Shown piece after piece: positions 324 through 6,651 of a DNA stretch of 6,755 nucleotides. Where the stretch lies: IMG/VR virus record IMGVR_UViG_2711768074_000016, positions 1-6,755 of that record; one strand, written 5' to 3'. Source of the DNA: a virus (taxonomy: Duplodnaviria > Heunggongvirae > Uroviricota > Caudoviricetes). The position numbers and the translations under genes were made by a program. The stretch's first letter is position 1. Every line of letters begins with the position of its first letter. The notes beneath the pieces are model-generated. The model searched no databases. It was not told where the DNA came from and was given only the letters and a program-made list of their open reading frames with translations.

Positions 324-324
324 A

Positions 325-400
325 TGGTGGCCCCTGCTGGACTTGAACCAGCGACCAAGCGATTATGAGTCGCTCGCTCTCACCACTGAGCTAAAGGGCC
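325..400 (-). tRNA. tRNA with anticodon CAU, tRNA-Ile2 (lysidine-type, ileX/ileZ-like) rather than tRNA-Met; 76 nt including encoded CCA
   Basis: The reverse complement folds as a canonical cloverleaf: acceptor GGCCCTT/AGGGGCC, D-stem GCTC/GAGC, anticodon stem AGCGA/TCGCT with loop CTCATAA, T-stem GCTGG/CCAGC with TTCAAGT loop, then ACCA. It is near-identical to E. coli ileX as I remember it, with a few substitutions typical of prophage copies. Confidence 0.88.
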
Positions 401-440
401 GGGAGCCGCATAATAACGACGCGTAATTAATTCTTCAATA

Positions 441-1499
441 TCATCCGTTCTGGCTGACTAAATCCTGTACTTCCCGAACCGTCTGCTCAAAACGTTCAGT
501 CTCCAGCTCAACGCCAATTGCACGACGCCCGAGCGCCAGTGCCGCTTTCACTGTCGAACCCGACCCCATGAAAAAATCTGCAATCAGGTCACCCGGACGA
601 CTGCTAGCGCTGATTATCTGCTGCAGCATTTCTGCCGGTTTTTCGCACGGATGTTTCCCGGGATAGAACTGCACCGGTTTATGCGTCCACACATCGGTAT
701 ACGGCACCTGCACCGTCACGCCAAAATACCGCCGCAGATGCTTATATTCACTCAGCAGTTCCATATACTGCCGGTTCAGCTCACTGTATGTGCTGACCAG
801 TTGGTAATGGGACTTTTCCAGTTCTCCCCGCTGATGTTTCTCTTCTGCCACCCGGGCAAACAGCGACTGTAATTTCAGATAATCGCTTTCGTTCGGTAGC
901 TGCCACTGACTGGCACTGAACCAGTGCGACACCATGTTTTTCTTTCCTGTGGCATCTGCAATCTGTTTTGCCGTTATCCCCAGGGCCGCGCGCGCATCAC
1001 GAAAGTAAGAAATCAGCGGGGCCATCACATGCTGTTTCAGTGCACTGCCCTTCGCCGCATACCCGGCATCTTTCGGACGATACGGCCCCTGATAATGTTC
1101 CGCGAACAGAATGCGCTCTGTGGCGGGGAAATACGCCCGCAGGCTTTCCTTGTTGCATCCGTTCCAGCGTCCGGACGGCTTCGCCCAGATAATATGGTTC
1201 AGCACACTGAAGCGTTCACGCATCATGATTTCGATATCAGATGCCAGGCGATGACCACAGAACAGGTAAAGACTTCCGGCAGGTTTCAGCACCCGCCAGA
1301 ACTGCGCCAGACACTGGTCCAGCCACTTCAGGTAATCATCGTCGCCCTTCCACTGGTTATCCCAGCCCTCGGGCTTCACTTTAAAGTATGGCGGGTCTGT
1401 GACTATCAGATCGACAGAGTTTTCCGGTAAGGTCTGGATAAATTCCAGGCAATCAGCGTTGATTAACTCACAACTGGATATTTTTACAGTATTAGCCAT
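441..1499 (-). CDS. DNA methyltransferase, beta-class (N6-adenine or N4-cytosine), probable phage orphan methylase, 352 aa
   Basis: Motif IV (VTDPPYF) lies near the N-terminus at residues ~33-39 and the AdoMet-binding motif I (DFFMGSGST) near the C-terminus. That permuted order is characteristic of beta-group amino-methyltransferases. No adjacent restriction endonuclease gene is visible. The RBS is weak. Confidence 0.85.
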   Translation of the reverse strand: MANTVKISSCELINADCLEFIQTLPENSVDLIVTDPPYFKVKPEGWDNQWKGDDDYLKWLDQCLAQFWRVLKPAGSLYLFCGHRLASDIEIMMRERFSVLNHIIWAKPSGRWNGCNKESLRAYFPATERILFAEHYQGPYRPKDAGYAAKGSALKQHVMAPLISYFRDARAALGITAKQIADATGKKNMVSHWFSASQWQLPNESDYLKLQSLFARVAEEKHQRGELEKSHYQLVSTYSELNRQYMELLSEYKHLRRYFGVTVQVPYTDVWTHKPVQFYPGKHPCEKPAEMLQQIISASSRPGDLIADFFMGSGSTVKAALALGRRAIGVELETERFEQTVREVQDLVSQNG

Positions 1500-1649
1500 A
1501 GATCAATAAGCACTTCTCTGATAGGCTCATACCGCTTTTGCGCAAAGCAGATGGGCCTGAGGTTTGCTTGTGACCCCAACGCATGAGCAGATGGCTGGCA
1601 GGTGCCGCTAACACCCACCAGCCGCCCATTACCACAAATAAAAAAGCCT

Positions 1650-1970
1650 TCACTGAGGAAGGCGTCTGTAACAACCGAACTGATAATCTGCCAGACCCGC
1701 CATAACAAGCTGGGTCAGTATTAACTGGCAGCGTTCGCGTGAAAGATAAGTGTTCTGCGCAATTTCCCCGGCGGTCGCCGGTTCGGTGACGCTTAATTCA
1801 TTAAACACCACTCTGGCGGTTTCGGTCATATCCTGCTGTTTTAGCATGCCTTTTTCCATTTTCCGGTTAACGTGACATACCAATAACTCTTGTCGAAAAA
1901 GCCAGCAAGTTGAAAGACCGGTATTAGCAACCACCAGCGCGTTTAACGCCCCGTGCCGTTTTTCAGTCAT
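1650..1970 (-). CDS. Hypothetical protein (106 aa), coding status uncertain; C-terminal half has a helix-turn-helix-like character
   Basis: Longest minus-strand ORF between the Q-like gene and the methylase. Its ATG directly abuts the T-tract of the upstream terminator and has no Shine-Dalgarno. Two alternative-frame ORFs overlap it (1484-1708, 1492-1674). Confidence 0.3.
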   Translation of the reverse strand: MTEKRHGALNALVVANTGLSTCWLFRQELLVCHVNRKMEKGMLKQQDMTETARVVFNELSVTEPATAGEIAQNTYLSRERCQLILTQLVMAGLADYQFGCYRRLPQ

Positions 1971-1999
1971 AAAAAAACCCGCAAAAAGCGGGCTCTTTC
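1971..1999 (-). terminator. Intrinsic terminator immediately downstream of the Q-like gene (tR'-like)
   Basis: On the minus strand: stem cccgc/gcggg with a 5-nt loop followed by seven T residues (gcccgctttttgcgggttttttt). About 80-100 nt downstream of the Q-like stop, matching the short pR'-tR' arrangement of lambdoid phages. Confidence 0.55.
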
Positions 2000-2071
2000 A
2001 AATGTCCATGTCTGCTATTCGCCTCGCGGTACAGCTTTGCGAAGCTTACCGGAATTGAAGCAGTTTTTACG

Positions 2072-2638
2072 TCAAAAAGCAATAACTTTTTTCTCTATAC
2101 CAAAAGCCATAACCATTGGTTTGTACAAAATAAATTCTGCCACCTTTAGCCAATGCTCAATGCGTCTTTCACAGGTTCTTAAACTCCATTCCGGATGTGC
2201 ATCATTCAGCAGTTCAGCCATTTTGCGCTTAGTCATCCCCCGCCCCACATAACGCTGACTCAGAACATTGAGCAGCCCGGGATAACCTGCCAGTACTTCA
2301 CCAATAACCCTGTCGATTATTAACGCCTCTGAATCGGTACAATGTGCCAGCCAGCTTTTTTGATTGCCGTTGATCATATCCCGCAAAAAAGCCTCAAGTT
2401 CAGGTTTGTCCAGACCCGCTTTTTTCATCCTCCGGAGCGCCTCGTTAATTGCCGTTTTTGTCAGCTTTTTAGAGGTCAGTAATTGGTTGAACATATTTCC
2501 CGTCTTACCGTCGCCAATATACGACCAACGCCCCCACATACGCAGTTTCCCCTGGATCCAGACACTTTCCAGCGTTTTCAGGCGTAAATGCTCACCGCTT
2601 TTGCCTGTAATTTCCGGGTATATCATATTTATGCTCAC
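2072..2638 (-). CDS. Putative late-gene antiterminator Q-like protein, 188 aa
   Basis: Position immediately after rusA and before a strong terminator, as in lambdoid nin-Q regions. The LRMWGRW motif resembles the RWGAW motif I recall in Q-like proteins such as DLP12 QuuD. The track start at 2638 is GTG and overlaps the rusA stop; an in-frame ATG at 2626 is an alternative start. Confidence 0.5.
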   Translation of the reverse strand: MSINMIYPEITGKSGEHLRLKTLESVWIQGKLRMWGRWSYIGDGKTGNMFNQLLTSKKLTKTAINEALRRMKKAGLDKPELEAFLRDMINGNQKSWLAHCTDSEALIIDRVIGEVLAGYPGLLNVLSQRYVGRGMTKRKMAELLNDAHPEWSLRTCERRIEHWLKVAEFILYKPMVMAFGIEKKVIAF

Positions 2639-2994
2639 TCACTTTCAATTTTGTAAATCTTCACGCCCAGCCGCCCACCAGAAACGAGCTGACCGCGCAC
2701 AATATTGATTTCATCAAACTGCTCGTCGTCTATAAGTAGTCCGGCATGCGTAAGCGCATCCAGTGGTGCCTTCAGGATATTGTCCAGGTCGCGGCGGCGC
2801 TTATCCGGTGGCTCTGCAATAATCTTTATCGCCAGCCTTCCGGACAGGTTTAATTTCAGCCACTGCTGGCGAACAATAAGTGCCACATCCCGGCGATAAC
2901 GCTCACCGGCTTTTGACACAAAATATGTGCTGCCACGACGTCGCCAGTAGGTGTTCACCGTCGGCGGGTAAGGCAAAACAAACTCTATACGCAT
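2635..2994 (-). CDS. rusA: Crossover junction endodeoxyribonuclease RusA (Holliday junction resolvase), 119 aa
   Basis: The translation has the RusA hallmark RRRDLDN acidic catalytic motif and is collinear with E. coli RusA, which is ~120 aa. Good RBS (aagagg, 6-nt spacer). Stop overlaps the start of the next gene. Confidence 0.9.
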   Translation of the reverse strand: MRIEFVLPYPPTVNTYWRRRGSTYFVSKAGERYRRDVALIVRQQWLKLNLSGRLAIKIIAEPPDKRRRDLDNILKAPLDALTHAGLLIDDEQFDEINIVRGQLVSGGRLGVKIYKIESE

Positions 2995-3006
2995 CAGTAA
3001 CCTCTT

Positions 3007-4056
3007 TTACCCGAGCACGCCGGTTGCAAAGGCGCGATCAAGAAAACGAAAAATTAAATCAATCTGGGAACCATGCTTTTCTTCAAATGCCAGCGGATCA
3101 GCATGAAGTTCGTTGTGATGCTCCCGGCACAACGGTAGCGTGAAAATATCGTGGGCTTTTGTCCCTATTCCGCCCTGACCATGACCAATCAGGTGATGGG
3201 GATCGTCGGCTGGCTTACCACAACACGCACACGGCTGTGTCTTTACCCAGCGCGTATATTTCTCATTTACCCAACGGCGACGTTTAGGTCGCTTCATTAA
3301 AGATTCCGGAGACTCCGGATCAACAGCAATGCTGACCACCGTCTTTTCCTGTGGCGGGTTCTGTTGCTGGTGGGCGTGAGGCAGCGGCGCAAGATTTTTT
3401 GTGCGCTGTTTCAGTATGCTGGTGGCGGTCTGCTCTCCCGGTACGATGTCGCTTTCACGGTACATTGAGCGGATTTTTTCCGCACGCAACCCCAGCGAAC
3501 GACGTAATACCGCTTCCGGTAGCGCGTCCGCCACCTGATTGCGGATCGCCCACCAGGATAATTCAGCCAGCGATAATTCCCGTTCCTGCGAGCCATTCAT
3601 TGCATGGCGTATGACGTCAATCATCCATGCAGACAGGTTTTGGTGAGCAAGTTGCCCGAGTGATTCGGAGGTCTGGTCGCGCAGCTGGTTGTCGCAGTGC
3701 CAGCACAACACCATTGCGCCGGTACCATAACGATGTATGACGGTTTCACTGTGATGGTAGTCACCATGAGGCCACTGGCAGGATTTGACATGACGCAGGA
3801 GCCAGTCAGACAGTGCGCCAGCGCCGCCAGCAGCACGAATCACACGCTCATCGCTGAAAAATGGCAGTAATGATTTATCCTCCGCCAGCGGCTGGCGAAC
3901 GGCAGGGACGACTCCGGACGGCAGACCGCGCATGCTTTTCGGTTCCGGCTCCACCAGCACCCTGCCGCAATGAAAAACCGGCAGTGATTCGCGACCGGGC
4001 TTAAGGACCACCAGCCCGAGTTCCGGTACCAGAACAGGTCGAAGTAATACCCGCAC
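3007..4056 (-). CDS. ydfU: DUF968-family prophage protein (YdfU-like), 349 aa, with a C-terminal Cys/His HNH-like motif
   Basis: Same length and N-terminus (MRVLLRPVLVPELG...) as the Qin prophage YdfU that I recall. C-terminal CACCGKPADDPHHL...CREHHNELH cluster. Tightly packed with both neighbours (1-nt gap to the upstream stop, 12-nt gap to rusA). Confidence 0.8.
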   Translation of the reverse strand: MRVLLRPVLVPELGLVVLKPGRESLPVFHCGRVLVEPEPKSMRGLPSGVVPAVRQPLAEDKSLLPFFSDERVIRAAGGAGALSDWLLRHVKSCQWPHGDYHHSETVIHRYGTGAMVLCWHCDNQLRDQTSESLGQLAHQNLSAWMIDVIRHAMNGSQERELSLAELSWWAIRNQVADALPEAVLRRSLGLRAEKIRSMYRESDIVPGEQTATSILKQRTKNLAPLPHAHQQQNPPQEKTVVSIAVDPESPESLMKRPKRRRWVNEKYTRWVKTQPCACCGKPADDPHHLIGHGQGGIGTKAHDIFTLPLCREHHNELHADPLAFEEKHGSQIDLIFRFLDRAFATGVLG

Positions 4057-4057
4057 G

Positions 4058-4336
4058 TTACCTCCAGATGCGTTGCTGGAATGTGCGGGACAGACGCGGT
4101 GGGCGTTCGGAGTAAGGAAGCCCGACGGAGATTATCCAGTGACGGTAGTCGAGGCTAAGGGCTTTTTTAACCTCGCATCCGCGCCTGCGGTAACACTGAA
4201 TGAGCCATTCGGCCTGTTCTTCAGTGCATGGGGGATGCTGGTACCAGTCTGACTTAAATGCGTGAGAATACCGCTCGTGCGTGTGGGCAAGAACGGTCGA
4301 ATTATCATGATTGTAATATTTTGCGTTGCGTGCCAT
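4058..4336 (-). CDS. Hypothetical prophage protein, 92 aa
   Basis: Strong RBS (GGAGG, 6-nt spacer before ATG at 4336). Stop immediately precedes the DUF968 start, suggesting translational coupling. No family recognised. Confidence 0.6.
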   Translation of the reverse strand: MARNAKYYNHDNSTVLAHTHERYSHAFKSDWYQHPPCTEEQAEWLIQCYRRRGCEVKKALSLDYRHWIISVGLPYSERPPRLSRTFQQRIWR

Positions 4337-4402
4337 CGGTTTCCTCCGGCGGCACGGTGTTACTCAGCGGGAGTTCAGCCCCGCGCAAGATTGTAGATGA
4401 GT

Positions 4403-4654
4403 TTATTCTTCTGAAAAAGCAGAAAAGCCAGCTTTTATTCCGATCTCTTTCAGTGCCTGTAATGAAGTGACAAACTCACCTTCGCGCAAGATAAATCCGT
4501 CTGTCACTCGACCATCCACAAAATTAATTAACGCAGCCCCATTCTTTCGCAAACACACAATGCGGTAATGACTAACAATATTTCCATTTTCAACGCACAC
4601 AGCATAGAGGCCATCTTCACAAAAAATTTTACGCAGTTCTTCGATGTTCATCAT
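4403..4654 (-). CDS. rem: Rem-like small prophage protein, 83 aa
   Basis: Same length, MMNIEELRK N-terminus and position (between hokD and the DUF968 gene) as the Qin prophage rem gene as I recall it. RBS GGAAGG with a 6-nt spacer. Confidence 0.65.
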   Translation of the reverse strand: MMNIEELRKIFCEDGLYAVCVENGNIVSHYRIVCLRKNGAALINFVDGRVTDGFILREGEFVTSLQALKEIGIKAGFSAFSEE

Positions 4655-4770
4655 CAGAATCCTTCCGGATAATTAGCTCTCCCCTTTAAGGGACCATCCC
4701 TCTTATCCCTGCGCGCTACTTAAGTATTTTTGATTCTATTCCGACACCGTCCAGAACTTCAAATGCGTTG

Positions 4771-4800
4771 AAAATAAAAACAAAAACCCGCCGAAGCGGG
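4771..4800 (-). terminator. Intrinsic terminator of the hok mRNA
   Basis: On the minus strand: stem cccgc/gcggg with a 4-nt loop followed by tttttgtttttatttt. About 70 nt downstream of the hok stop. Confidence 0.65.
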
Positions 4801-4870
4801 TTAAGTGCGGGTGCGTTGAGGATGCCTGACACATCAGCGGTGGCGAGGGATTTCTCCCCCGCCTGGTCTC

Positions 4871-5026
4871 TTACTCCTCAGGTTCGTAAGCTGTGAAGAC
4901 AGCGACCTCCGTCTGGCCGGTTCGGATTCGTACCTCGCAGAGGTCTTTCCTCGTTACCAGTGCCGTCACTATGACGGTTAAACAGATGACGATCAGGGCG
5001 ATTAACATCGCCTTTTGCTGCTTCAT
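4871..5026 (-). CDS. hokD: Hok-family type I toxin (HokD/RelF-like), 51 aa
   Basis: The translation MKQQKAMLIALIVICLTVIVTALVTRKDLCEVRIRTGQTEVAVFTAYEPEE matches HokD as I remember it. RBS AAGGAG upstream of ATG at 5026. Single transmembrane helix followed by a periplasmic tail. Confidence 0.85.
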   Translation of the reverse strand: MKQQKAMLIALIVICLTVIVTALVTRKDLCEVRIRTGQTEVAVFTAYEPEE

Positions 5027-5083
5027 AGCCTGCTTCTCCTTGCCTTTCGGCGCGTAAGAGGCTAACCTACGTTTGTGAAGCAT
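4871..5083 (-). CDS. mok-like reading frame: in-frame N-terminal extension of hok (70 aa) that gates hok translation
   Basis: ATG at 5083 with GAGG 8 nt upstream. The 19-aa extension MLHKRRLASYAPKGKEKQA parallels the MokC extension in K-12, which is likewise in frame with its hok. Confidence 0.45.
   Translation of the reverse strand: MLHKRRLASYAPKGKEKQAMKQQKAMLIALIVICLTVIVTALVTRKDLCEVRIRTGQTEVAVFTAYEPEE
5040..5068 (+). promoter_or_regulatory. Candidate promoter for a Sok-like antisense RNA (-35 TTGCCT, 17-bp spacer, -10 TAACCT)
   Basis: Hexamers read on the plus strand inside the mok/hok overlap, positioned so that a transcript would run antisense across the mok start codon and SD. Sequence pattern only. 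Confidence 0.25.
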
Positions 5084-5152
5084 AGATTGGGCCTCAGATT
5101 AATGTTAAGCGTCTTGCAGGACGCGTAATGTTAACTGGGGCTTTTCTCTGTC
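5075..5152 (+). ncRNA. Putative Sok-like antisense RNA complementary to the mok translation initiation region
   Basis: Inferred from the candidate promoter plus a downstream hairpin (gcgtc...gacgc at 5111-5126, enclosed by gcctcag/ctggggc) followed by ttttctc. Ends are not defined. Confidence 0.2.
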
Positions 5153-5237
5153 TGCCTTACGGTGGCATGCCCGAGGCAGACAGCCTCAAGCACCCGCAGC
5201 AATTCTACTTAACTCCCGTCACCTCGCCAATATAAAA

Positions 5238-5327
5238 TCAATCAGAAAGGCGATCCATAAGAACAATAGCAAGACAATAAATTGCCACTACAGCCGCAAT
5301 AGCCAGCGCGCATTTGAGAACCAGCAC
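5238..5327 (-). CDS. Possible small hydrophobic protein, 29 aa (VLVLKCALAIAAVVAIYCLAIVLMDRLSD, GTG start)
   Basis: Consensus AGGAGG Shine-Dalgarno 5 nt upstream of GTG at 5327. Single predicted transmembrane segment with a charged C-terminus. Starts ~70 nt downstream of the SIR2-like gene stop on the same strand. Below the ORF-track size cutoff; unverified. Confidence 0.25.
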   Translation of the reverse strand: MLVLKCALAIAAVVAIYCLAIVLMDRLSD

Positions 5328-5397
5328 GATAACCTCCTGTATTGGACGTACACCAGCTCTGATAAATATGAGGCTGCCTCTTTAACTTCGCATTGCG

Positions 5398-6429
5398 CTA
5401 CCAATCAATAAAATCAGTGATGTTATCCAACCTAATTACAGTAACTTCCCGTCTCAACTGGTTTTTCCAATATATCTCACGAGCGTTTTGTTCACCAGCA
5501 CCGCTCCACTCAATTACTCTTAAAGGCTTAGAGGTTAGGTAAGGTCGAATAAGCAGGTTAAGGTGAATATCGAGACCAGAGTAACCAAACAATATTATTT
5601 CTTCTGATTCAAATAATGCAAACTGCAAATAATCCCAGTACGTAGAAAGAACATTAGATGCTGCTATAACTGACGGTTTTCTTTTTATATGAGTTAACAC
5701 TATATGCTCACTAGGTTCATCTATGTCAAGAGTAAGTTGTGAGCGTGAAAGTTTTAAAACATTTTCATGCTGATTAATAAATAGTGGTGAACCATGCAAG
5801 TGCAAATAATAACCAAACCTACGATTGTATTTCCGTTCGAGCGCTGCAGAGGAAAATCCGTGGCTTAGCATCCCATCAACTAAAACCCCATCATACCCGT
5901 TGAATATATCATTATCTATGAATGAATTGTATAATAATTTGTCATAGTTTAATGTCGCGATATGTGAGTGTGTGTTCTTTACAAACTCCACAAGCGCATT
6001 TTCGAATCTTTGTGGCAAACCTTTATCGTAATTATGCAACCTGGTTGCAACTTTGTGAATATAAGTGGCGGTAATTTTGGGGAAGTTTAGTCCATCTTCA
6101 GTAAGCCAATGCACGTTCCCCTCTCCAATTTGAGCAAGAGCTTTACAATATGTGACAGCCTGGTGAAGGGTATCCAACTCATGTTCTCCTTCTGGTGGAC
6201 CTTGCCGCTGAAGACAACGCTCGATAAGTTGCTTGTGGATATCTTTTAAAAAATTGGGGCGATGCCAAATTTCTTCCAACGCTCTGTCTAAGGAGAAGTG
6301 AGCAGGATCTAAAGCCATACCGAGACCGTTGCCGAATATTATTAATTTTCTTGCCATATAGGGGGACTCATATTGGAATAACGCTGGATAGCGTCGCGCG
6401 ATACGCTTAAGTTTAGGATTAATAGACAT
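5398..6429 (-). CDS. Stand-alone SIR2-like domain protein (SIR2_2/ThsA-like fold), candidate NAD+-depleting antiphage defence effector, 343 aa
   Basis: The translation carries the four SIR2_2-type motifs in the correct order and spacing: a Rossmann glycine-rich loop LIIFGNGLG (res 29-37), TLNYDKLL (res ~158-166, putative catalytic Asn161), LHLHGS (putative catalytic His212, codon at 5794-5796) and ILFGYSGLD (res ~278-287). Compare ThsA: FAGAGLS, TTNYDRL, MHGD, LFVGFSFTD. The gene is AT-rich with many rare ATA and AGA/AGG codons. The start is uncertain: 6429 has a weak RBS and the in-frame ATG at 6357 is an alternative. Confidence 0.6.
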   Translation of the reverse strand: MSINPKLKRIARRYPALFQYESPYMARKLIIFGNGLGMALDPAHFSLDRALEEIWHRPNFLKDIHKQLIERCLQRQGPPEGEHELDTLHQAVTYCKALAQIGEGNVHWLTEDGLNFPKITATYIHKVATRLHNYDKGLPQRFENALVEFVKNTHSHIATLNYDKLLYNSFIDNDIFNGYDGVLVDGMLSHGFSSAALERKYNRRFGYYLHLHGSPLFINQHENVLKLSRSQLTLDIDEPSEHIVLTHIKRKPSVIAASNVLSTYWDYLQFALFESEEIILFGYSGLDIHLNLLIRPYLTSKPLRVIEWSGAGEQNAREIYWKNQLRREVTVIRLDNITDFIDW

Positions 6430-6651
6430 TCCGTTTGATTACTCTTGTTATTACAAACTTGCATGCAAAGAAGCCCAAGCTGTTAGGTAAACAGAGACCG
6501 CAGTGGCAAGATAATCTAGATATAGCCTATAAAATCCAACAACAAATAGCGGCCTGTTTTCTATGACTTTTCTTTTCCCTAAATATCGCTTATCTAATAA
6601 AATGCAATAATGTATTGCACAGTATTTAATGTGTATTAATATAGATAAGTA

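Follow-up and report, generated by a model that had tools for sequence, protein, structure and literature searches.

A Probable Non-Specific Adenine Methyltransferase Gene of the M.EcoGII Family behind a Conserved Structured Leader in a Lambdoid Prophage

Main Finding

The methyltransferase gene found in a viral DNA stretch of 6,755 nucleotides (hereafter the window, the whole stretch that was analysed) is best explained, with a probability of about 0.7 in our estimation, as a prophage gene of the M.EcoGII type, whose product, a non-specific adenine methyltransferase made late and in dependence on the antiterminator Q, would hypermethylate phage DNA against restriction. The family membership of the protein, the gene order, the terminators and the conservation of a leader RNA in front of the gene were established in this analysis. 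The family is already characterised, and the window gene is an ordinary member of it, since at least 80% of the gene was found in 1,917 of 5,426 complete Escherichia coli genomes, at up to seven places per genome.

Enzymes of the M.EcoGII family are sold as reagents and have found application in the footprinting of chromatin and RNA. It is, in our opinion, a regulatory question how a cell can harbour an enzyme that would methylate every adenine, and for this question the leader, the small open reading frame (ORF) and the double terminator of this locus provide concrete mutable elements. The features considered below are collected in Table 1.

Table 1. Features of the window and their positions
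Feature	Position	Strand	Characteristics
tRNA, CAU anticodon (RefSeq: tRNA-Ile)	325–400	minus	ARAGORN; Rfam tRNA 72.5 bits
Sigma-70-like promoter (predicted)	410–438	minus	TTGAAG-17-TATTAT; between methyltransferase stop and tRNA
Methyltransferase CDS, M.EcoGII family	441–1499	minus	352 aa, beta-class; ORF, PF01555 and identity to M.EcoGII
Structured non-coding leader	1497–1634	minus	137 nt; abuts methyltransferase start codon
Leader domain 2	about 1500–1575	minus	nested helices; closing helix pairs −8 to −3 before AUG
Leader domain 1	about 1583–1629	minus	long hairpin nested in short outer helix
Terminator-like hairpin T2	1646–1663	minus	GCCTTC-loop-GAAGGC then T6; overlaps small-ORF stop
Small winged-helix ORF	1650–1847	minus	65 aa; phrog_331 (function unknown), E = 5e-37; weak Pfam TrmB match
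Intrinsic terminator T1, tR'-like	1971–1999	minus	CCCGC-TTTTT-GCGGG then T7; ~70 nt past Q stop codon
Q-like late antiterminator gene	2072–2638	minus	DUF1133 E = 4e-105; PF06530 (Phage_antitermQ) above cut-off; phrog_753 'anti-termination protein Q-like'
RusA	2635–2994	minus	
DUF968/HNH gene	3007–4056	minus	C-terminal part resembles HNH nucleases (phrog_96); two genes away
92-aa ORF	4058–4336	minus	phrog_1212, unknown function; precedes DUF968 gene
SIR2-family gene	5398–6429	minus	343 aa; prophage early/nin region beside hokD

Methyltransferase Protein and Its Specificity

The ORF of the methyltransferase is uninterrupted, from ATG at 1499 to the stop codon at 443–441. The assignment of its product to the beta-class amino-methyltransferases, made in the original prediction from the order of motifs, was confirmed: motif IV (DPPY, aa 44–47) is N-terminal to motif I (FMGSGS, aa 309–314), and the Pfam family PF01555 (N6_N4_Mtase) covers aa 29–340 with E = 1.3e-43 and 150 bits versus a cut-off of 26.7. 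An exact copy of the protein, A0A0K3TIW8_ECOLX, occurs on 33 contigs of public collections.

The closest solved structures are those of DNA amino-methyltransferases, namely 8urk/9c3u, M.RsrI, CcrM, M.MboIIA, DpnA and N4-cytosine enzymes, which align with the window protein over the catalytic core alone, as two separate segments. An alignment with RNA or protein methyltransferases had been named beforehand as the result that would speak against a DNA methyltransferase; the comparison with solved structures gave no pointer to a protein methyltransferase. The AlphaFold2 single-chain model, built from an alignment of 32 sequences, is of low confidence (pLDDT 58.6, pTM 0.43). Beta-class N6/N4 amino-methyltransferases are claimed to act as dimers (PMC7544214).

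The gene is an orphan, as had been supposed. Using PADLOC, solely methyltransferase models were matched at the locus, all of them by this ORF, and no endonuclease model or any other was matched by its neighbours, the 65-aa ORF and the tRNA gene, so the pair of methyltransferase and endonuclease of a type II restriction-modification system was not found there.

M.EcoGI and M.EcoGII originate from E. coli O104:H4 C227-11 and are non-specific adenine N6-methyltransferases (Murray et al. 2018, PMC5778455). M.EcoGII acts on adenine irrespective of the surrounding sequence, modifying up to 99% of dA in vitro and 86% of it in vivo, and also accepts single-stranded DNA, DNA:RNA hybrids and RNA (PMC5778455). 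This enzyme is encoded by a prophage, is unexpressed in the native lysogen and slows growth on expression (PMC5778455; also the EcoSal review). The two enzymes are identical in 333 of 349 positions, and phage 1720a-02 was cited as carrying 'a very similar' one (Murray et al., PMC5778455).

The window protein is identical to M.EcoGII in 328 of 349 positions (94%) over the full length, including the central target-recognition region. The reference used was a machine-read copy from the supplement of the SUPREM paper, which contains a few obvious errors; after their correction the identity is about 95%, and the corrected sequence is absent from the protein collection, hence the value is stated here as about 94–95%. 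In our own search, phage 1720a-02 (94.8%) and the best copies from Stx phages were 94.8–95.1% identical to M.EcoGII; thus, the window protein is as close to M.EcoGII as any homologue in the phage records, and its distance is comparable to that of M.EcoGI. Murray et al. regarded M.EcoGI and the enzyme of 1720a-02 as near homologues of M.EcoGII. More distant relatives, with 62–95% identity, are spread across Enterobacterales.

M.EcoGII (349 aa) and the window protein (352 aa) have in common the beta-class order of motifs, the prophage location and the absence of a partner endonuclease, but differ by ~17–21 substitutions (counted against the machine-read copy), including P230S and H232Y, and in the C-terminal tail (…DLVSQNG versus …DLIV). 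All 114 columns invariant among 36 family members of 53–93% identity are retained by the window protein. P230S and H232Y are departures from the consensus in two columns where at least 90% of the family members agree, which leaves some doubt about the full activity of this protein.

When five ancestors of the clade were reconstructed, each of them proved able to methylate both DNA and RNA in vitro (SUPREM study, PMC11551740). One of them, Anc284 ('SUPREM'), was described as non-site-specific, and M.PflMI, the nearest relative with a defined site, is just 27% identical (PMC11551740). According to the original prediction, the specificity of the enzyme cannot be told from its sequence. We disagree with this point, as identity of about 94% to an enzyme that methylates adenine in any context makes the likely specificity readable from the sequence, and the data on SUPREM and M.PflMI bear on it in the same direction. 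On this comparison, the window ORF encodes a member of the M.EcoGII family, and its product is probably a SAM-dependent N6-adenine methyltransferase with little or no sequence specificity. The suggestion that it might be an epigenetic methylase is likewise improbable, since neither M.EcoGII nor M.EcoGI is expressed in the lysogen and the expression of either is toxic. The 'site-specific' name given by automatic annotation is probably wrong for the M.EcoGII clade, which matters to anyone reading methylomes or phage host range.

Genomic Neighbourhood

The genes of the window follow each other on the minus strand in the order SIR2-family gene, hokD, rem, 92-aa ORF, DUF968/HNH gene, rusA, Q-like antiterminator gene, small ORF, methyltransferase gene and tRNA gene (CAU). 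The run from RusA through the antiterminator and the 65-aa ORF to the methyltransferase and the tRNA bears out the predicted position downstream of Q in the late region; in RefSeq the same Q gene is annotated as a DUF1133 family protein. The 92-aa ORF and the DUF968 gene are standard lambdoid nin-region content and no partners of the methyltransferase. Positions 324–6651 of the window share 99.9% identity with a lambdoid prophage in the O111:H2 strain 12A of E. coli. There, the genes after the methyltransferase are those of tRNA-Ile and two tRNA-Arg, a DUF6645 gene, and the holin, lysozyme, terminase and head genes.

The methyltransferase gene holds the same station in unrelated phage backbones. 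Its order in the Stx2a phage Stx2_14040 is Q, small ORF, methyltransferase, three tRNAs and stx2AB; in Hafnia phage yong2 it is antiterminator, small ORF, methyltransferase and holin; and in the P2-like Aeromonas phage phiO18P the gene stands between holin and lysin. Its upstream neighbour at loci of Mixta, Salmonella, Photorhabdus and Providencia is a gene of the Q families PF06323, PF06530, DUF1133/PF06530 or PF03589. Holins lie downstream of the methyltransferase in the scanned loci of Mixta, Salmonella, Klebsiella, Citrobacter and Photorhabdus, accompanied in Mixta by a phage lysozyme. Among 60 loci scanned, tRNA genes right after the methyltransferase are largely an Escherichia trait; the tRNA-Ile/Arg arrangement was otherwise found in E. 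albertii alone, and two Morganellaceae loci contain unrelated tRNAs further downstream.

In Stx2a phages the methyltransferase gene lies in the Q-gated stretch of the transcript that carries stx2, and its control elements are part of the upstream region of the toxin. The methyltransferase is undiscussed in those papers on the late regions of Stx phages that were examined. In many Stx2a phages (e.g., P14437, Stx2a_F451 and PA12) only the last 37 codons of the gene remain, with 84–92% identity, which suggests that the gene was deleted from those lineages.

The 65-aa ORF is named a 'TrmB family transcriptional regulator' or 'DprA-like winged helix' in different sources. Its place beside the methyltransferase gene is conserved in Hafnia phage yong2 and an Stx2a phage, and it was found upstream in about 60 of 80 genome loci and in 115 of 121 viral occurrences. 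In the other approximately 20 genome loci the leader is kept and this ORF is missing; therefore, it is not an obligatory partner or activator. A longer reading of 106 aa, starting at 1970, was rejected, its frame being not conserved. The ORF travels with the methyltransferase behind different Q genes, as far as Xenorhabdus (~40% identity), and in about a quarter of the loci unrelated genes replace it.

Terminators and Late Transcription

Expression from the Q-dependent late transcript had been graded as probable in the original prediction, and this is supported by the two intrinsic terminators between Q and the methyltransferase gene, as well as by the location of the gene between Q genes of four Pfam families and lysis genes in other genera. 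The anti-restriction role in the phage that was proposed with it is likewise supported, as probable.

The fold of T1 has an energy of −18.2 kcal/mol (z = −5.3), and none of 200 shuffled sequences was as stable; the loops found in Stx2_14040 and yong2 are different ones, on a conserved stem. The fold of T2 is weaker (−9.6 kcal/mol, z = −2.3), and a hairpin recurs at this position in homologous loci with differing stem sequences. In a scan, no sigma-70-like promoter was found between Q and the methyltransferase gene, and the late promoter pR' was not located, there being no consensus-like site between Q and T1; a weak TTGCTT-17-TTCAAT at about 2082–2054 was noticed by eye. As far as may be judged from sequence, the layout of the terminators, with no promoter found in between, would fit silence in the lysogen and Q-dependent read-through.

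The Stx phages offer a parallel in the PR'-tR' late leader (StxS), where an intrinsic terminator just past Q gates the late operon and the tRNAs have a separate promoter; however, the Q family there is another one, no sequence match exists, and StxS goes with a clade of 144-aa Q proteins (PMC7547250). In the Sakai Stx2a phage, the promoter driving the tRNAs was mapped between tR' and stx2AB (PMC7547250), and the promoter-like site predicted downstream of the methyltransferase in the window parallels it. Rfam matches of isrK, STnc370, RyhB and leader peptides on 1969–2067 were discarded: they are far below the gathering scores and centred on T1, and were taken for a generic resemblance to terminators. 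HnrS (EcOnc10–12), an sRNA of prophage late regions, was also found to be unrelated, as its Sakai coordinates lie between lysis and terminase genes on the opposite strand, away from Q and the methyltransferase.

Conserved Leader RNA

Immediately upstream of the methyltransferase there is a conserved leader, whose nucleotide identity across genera is 78–83%, whereas the methyltransferase proteins of the same loci are only 72–80% identical. The leader is non-coding because its homologues contain stop codons in all three frames; for the same reason, an ATG-led frame of 45 codons, which in the window overlaps the methyltransferase start, was rejected as a small ORF. No Shine-Dalgarno sequence was found at the usual distance from the methyltransferase AUG. 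In the outermost helix of domain 2, UGAUC at −8 to −3 is paired with GGUCA(C), which precedes the AUG by ~75 nt.

Folds calculated for single diverged members agree with the two-domain model. In an alignment of 46 sequences, 95.3% of the cells at the positions of the model are paired, versus 30–41% when the partners are slid, and double-sided changes occur at 10 of 41 pairs versus 3.0 ± 1.4 in shuffles, none of 500 shuffles reaching 10; in reading these counts it should be taken into account that the structure was derived from the same 46 sequences, which are related to one another. G-U cells (178) greatly outnumber A-C cells (21), and thus the structure is strand-specific and belongs to the mRNA strand. 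An alternative long-range pairing of UGGGC (alignment columns 41–45) with GCCCA (117–121), supported by one double change, was given by RNAalifold; it is possible that this is a second, perhaps switch, conformer, and the folds of diverged members favour the two-domain model.

A covariance model of the leader gave exactly one strong match per locus, always ending at ATG+3, including one match in a sequence outside the set from which the model was built; in Photorhabdus and Xenorhabdus the matches at the leader position were weak only. On viral contigs, a 21-nt core of the leader is followed by the methyltransferase start 129–132 nt downstream in 114 of 121 occurrences; three others lie at contig ends, and in the remaining four, domain 2 and the methyltransferase are swapped for another cassette. 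In these four contigs (L102, L140, L166 and L185), homology stops at about position 1577 of the window, between the leader domains, and resumes at the tRNA, with a cassette of about 800 bp in between.

No description of this RNA was found anywhere, including Rfam; a search of Rfam 15 gave no match on 1497–1634 either at E ≤ 1 or at E ≤ 10. We propose tentatively, at slightly less than even odds, that the leader is an undescribed cis-regulatory RNA dedicated to genes of the M.EcoGII family, in which domain 2 would close over the nucleotides preceding the start codon and hold off translation of the toxic enzyme until a signal of late infection, so that, together with the two terminators, it might form a layered safety lock.

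Comparison with Mom and Dam-Type Systems

In phage Mu, a small ORF lies upstream of mom, the mom start is occluded by mRNA structure, and the small activator (Com) is a zinc-finger protein binding the leader. The window is similar to com-mom in that the methyltransferase has a small ORF upstream and a leader predicted to occlude its start, and this likeness is an analogy only. Mom is a toxic DNA modifier which its temperate phage produces late and does not express in the lysogen (EcoSal review), and the M.EcoGII-type enzyme would share these properties; on the other hand, the chemistry of Mom is different, and the small ORF of the window is winged-helix-like rather than a zinc finger of the Com type. 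An obligatory upstream activator ORF, on which com-mom control depends, was not found, the 65-aa ORF being missing in about 20 of the 80 leader-bearing loci.

T4 Dam, P1 Dmt and 933W/VT2 Dam of the nin region are alpha-class enzymes, with motif I before motif IV, specific for GATC and encoded by early or nin-region genes. The same order of motifs, I before IV, was given for the alpha-class by Murray et al. (PMC5778455). These Dam-type enzymes resemble the window protein as orphan phage adenine methyltransferases, but in the latter motif IV precedes motif I and the gene belongs to the late operon. Both kinds occur in Hafnia phage yong2, where a separately annotated 'DNA N-6-adenine-methyltransferase' is present in the nin region besides the M.EcoGII-type gene.

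Proposed Mechanism and Alternative Explanations

The mechanism given here is inferred, as are the activity of this allele, its dependence on Q, what the leader does and any benefit against restriction. The gene would be kept off in the lysogen, as transcription from the Q region would stop at T1 and T2, and the start region of the mRNA, without a nearby Shine-Dalgarno sequence, would be buried in the conserved leader structure; such silence would be explained by the harmfulness of the activity. On induction, Q would make RNA polymerase resistant to terminators, and the late transcript would then extend across the small winged-helix ORF and the leader into the methyltransferase, tRNA and lysis genes. 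The leader might be opened by RNase processing, by the small winged-helix protein, or through feedback by the enzyme itself, as one that binds and methylates RNA. The enzyme would methylate most adenines of the replicating phage DNA before packaging, and the DNA of the progeny would be protected in the next host from type I, II and III restriction sensitive to adenine methylation. No published in vivo test of the protection of phage DNA by M.EcoGII-type enzymes was found in the literature.

The original prediction was of an orphan enzyme with its own, unnamed recognition motif, serving anti-restriction or epigenetic methylation. Most PF01555 enzymes are indeed site-specific, as are those with the closest solved structures (M.RsrI, CcrM and M.MboIIA), and the homologues bear the NCBI name 'site-specific DNA-methyltransferase'. 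This name is automatic, however, and the solved relatives align over the two stretches of the catalytic core alone, whereas the close identity to a non-specific enzyme extends across the recognition region; taken with the activity of all the ancestors on DNA and RNA, the description of SUPREM and the 27% identity of the nearest site-specific relative (PMC11551740), this makes recognition of a defined site very improbable. Even less probable is RNA, instead of DNA, as the physiological substrate, whether transcripts of the phage or the host or the tRNAs encoded nearby. M.EcoGII does methylate single-stranded RNA and DNA:RNA hybrids in vitro (PMC5778455), and tRNA genes directly follow the methyltransferase in Escherichia phages; yet activity on RNA is far below that on DNA and its variation among the ancestors looks neutral (PMC11551740), and the linkage to tRNA is largely confined to Escherichia, with a holin following in other genera.

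The gene could also be intact in sequence and functionless in this genome, the prophage being broken immediately downstream of it. Positions 1–400 of the window correspond to the end of a chromosomal island and ileY, and positions 324–6651 to the prophage, with the crossover inside the tRNA, a junction seen in no complete E. coli genome; the substitutions P230S and H232Y, in columns of at least 90% conservation within the family, point the same way. Against this reading, the ORF is of full length and keeps every invariant residue, and an identical gene (100% over all 1,059 bases) occurs in prophages that continue with tRNA, lysis and head genes, although IS66 disrupts the terminase in the copy examined. 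Moreover, the junction may be due to faulty assembly, or to an inversion after which both halves would still be there. A vestigial gene is therefore considered unlikely, and the late, non-specific methyltransferase of the M.EcoGII type remains the preferred reading.

Prophage Junction and SIR2-Family Gene

The tRNA gene at 325–400 is chimeric. As was shown by a three-way alignment, its 5' half corresponds to the phage copy and its 3' half to the chromosomal ileY copy, with a crossover around the anticodon loop. Positions 1–400 match one end of a chromosomal island together with the adjoining ileY, an arrangement seen in many E. coli, and positions 1–225 encode the C-terminus of a DUF4942 protein from this island. 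The junction is absent from all 5,426 complete E. coli genomes. It may have originated in three ways: ileY and the phage tRNA may have recombined or been the ends of an inversion, the island may have integrated into the phage tRNA, or the assembly may be at fault. In the first two cases the methyltransferase would be cut off from the lysis and head genes. As the prophage is interrupted right after the methyltransferase at the chimeric tRNA, the phage function may be vestigial in this genome.

At the other end of the window, the SIR2-family gene gave weak PADLOC matches (Aga_SIR2, PDC-S21 and SIR2, E about 1e-5) and could be placed in neither a PHROG nor an NCBIfam family; possibly it is a defence gene carried by the prophage.
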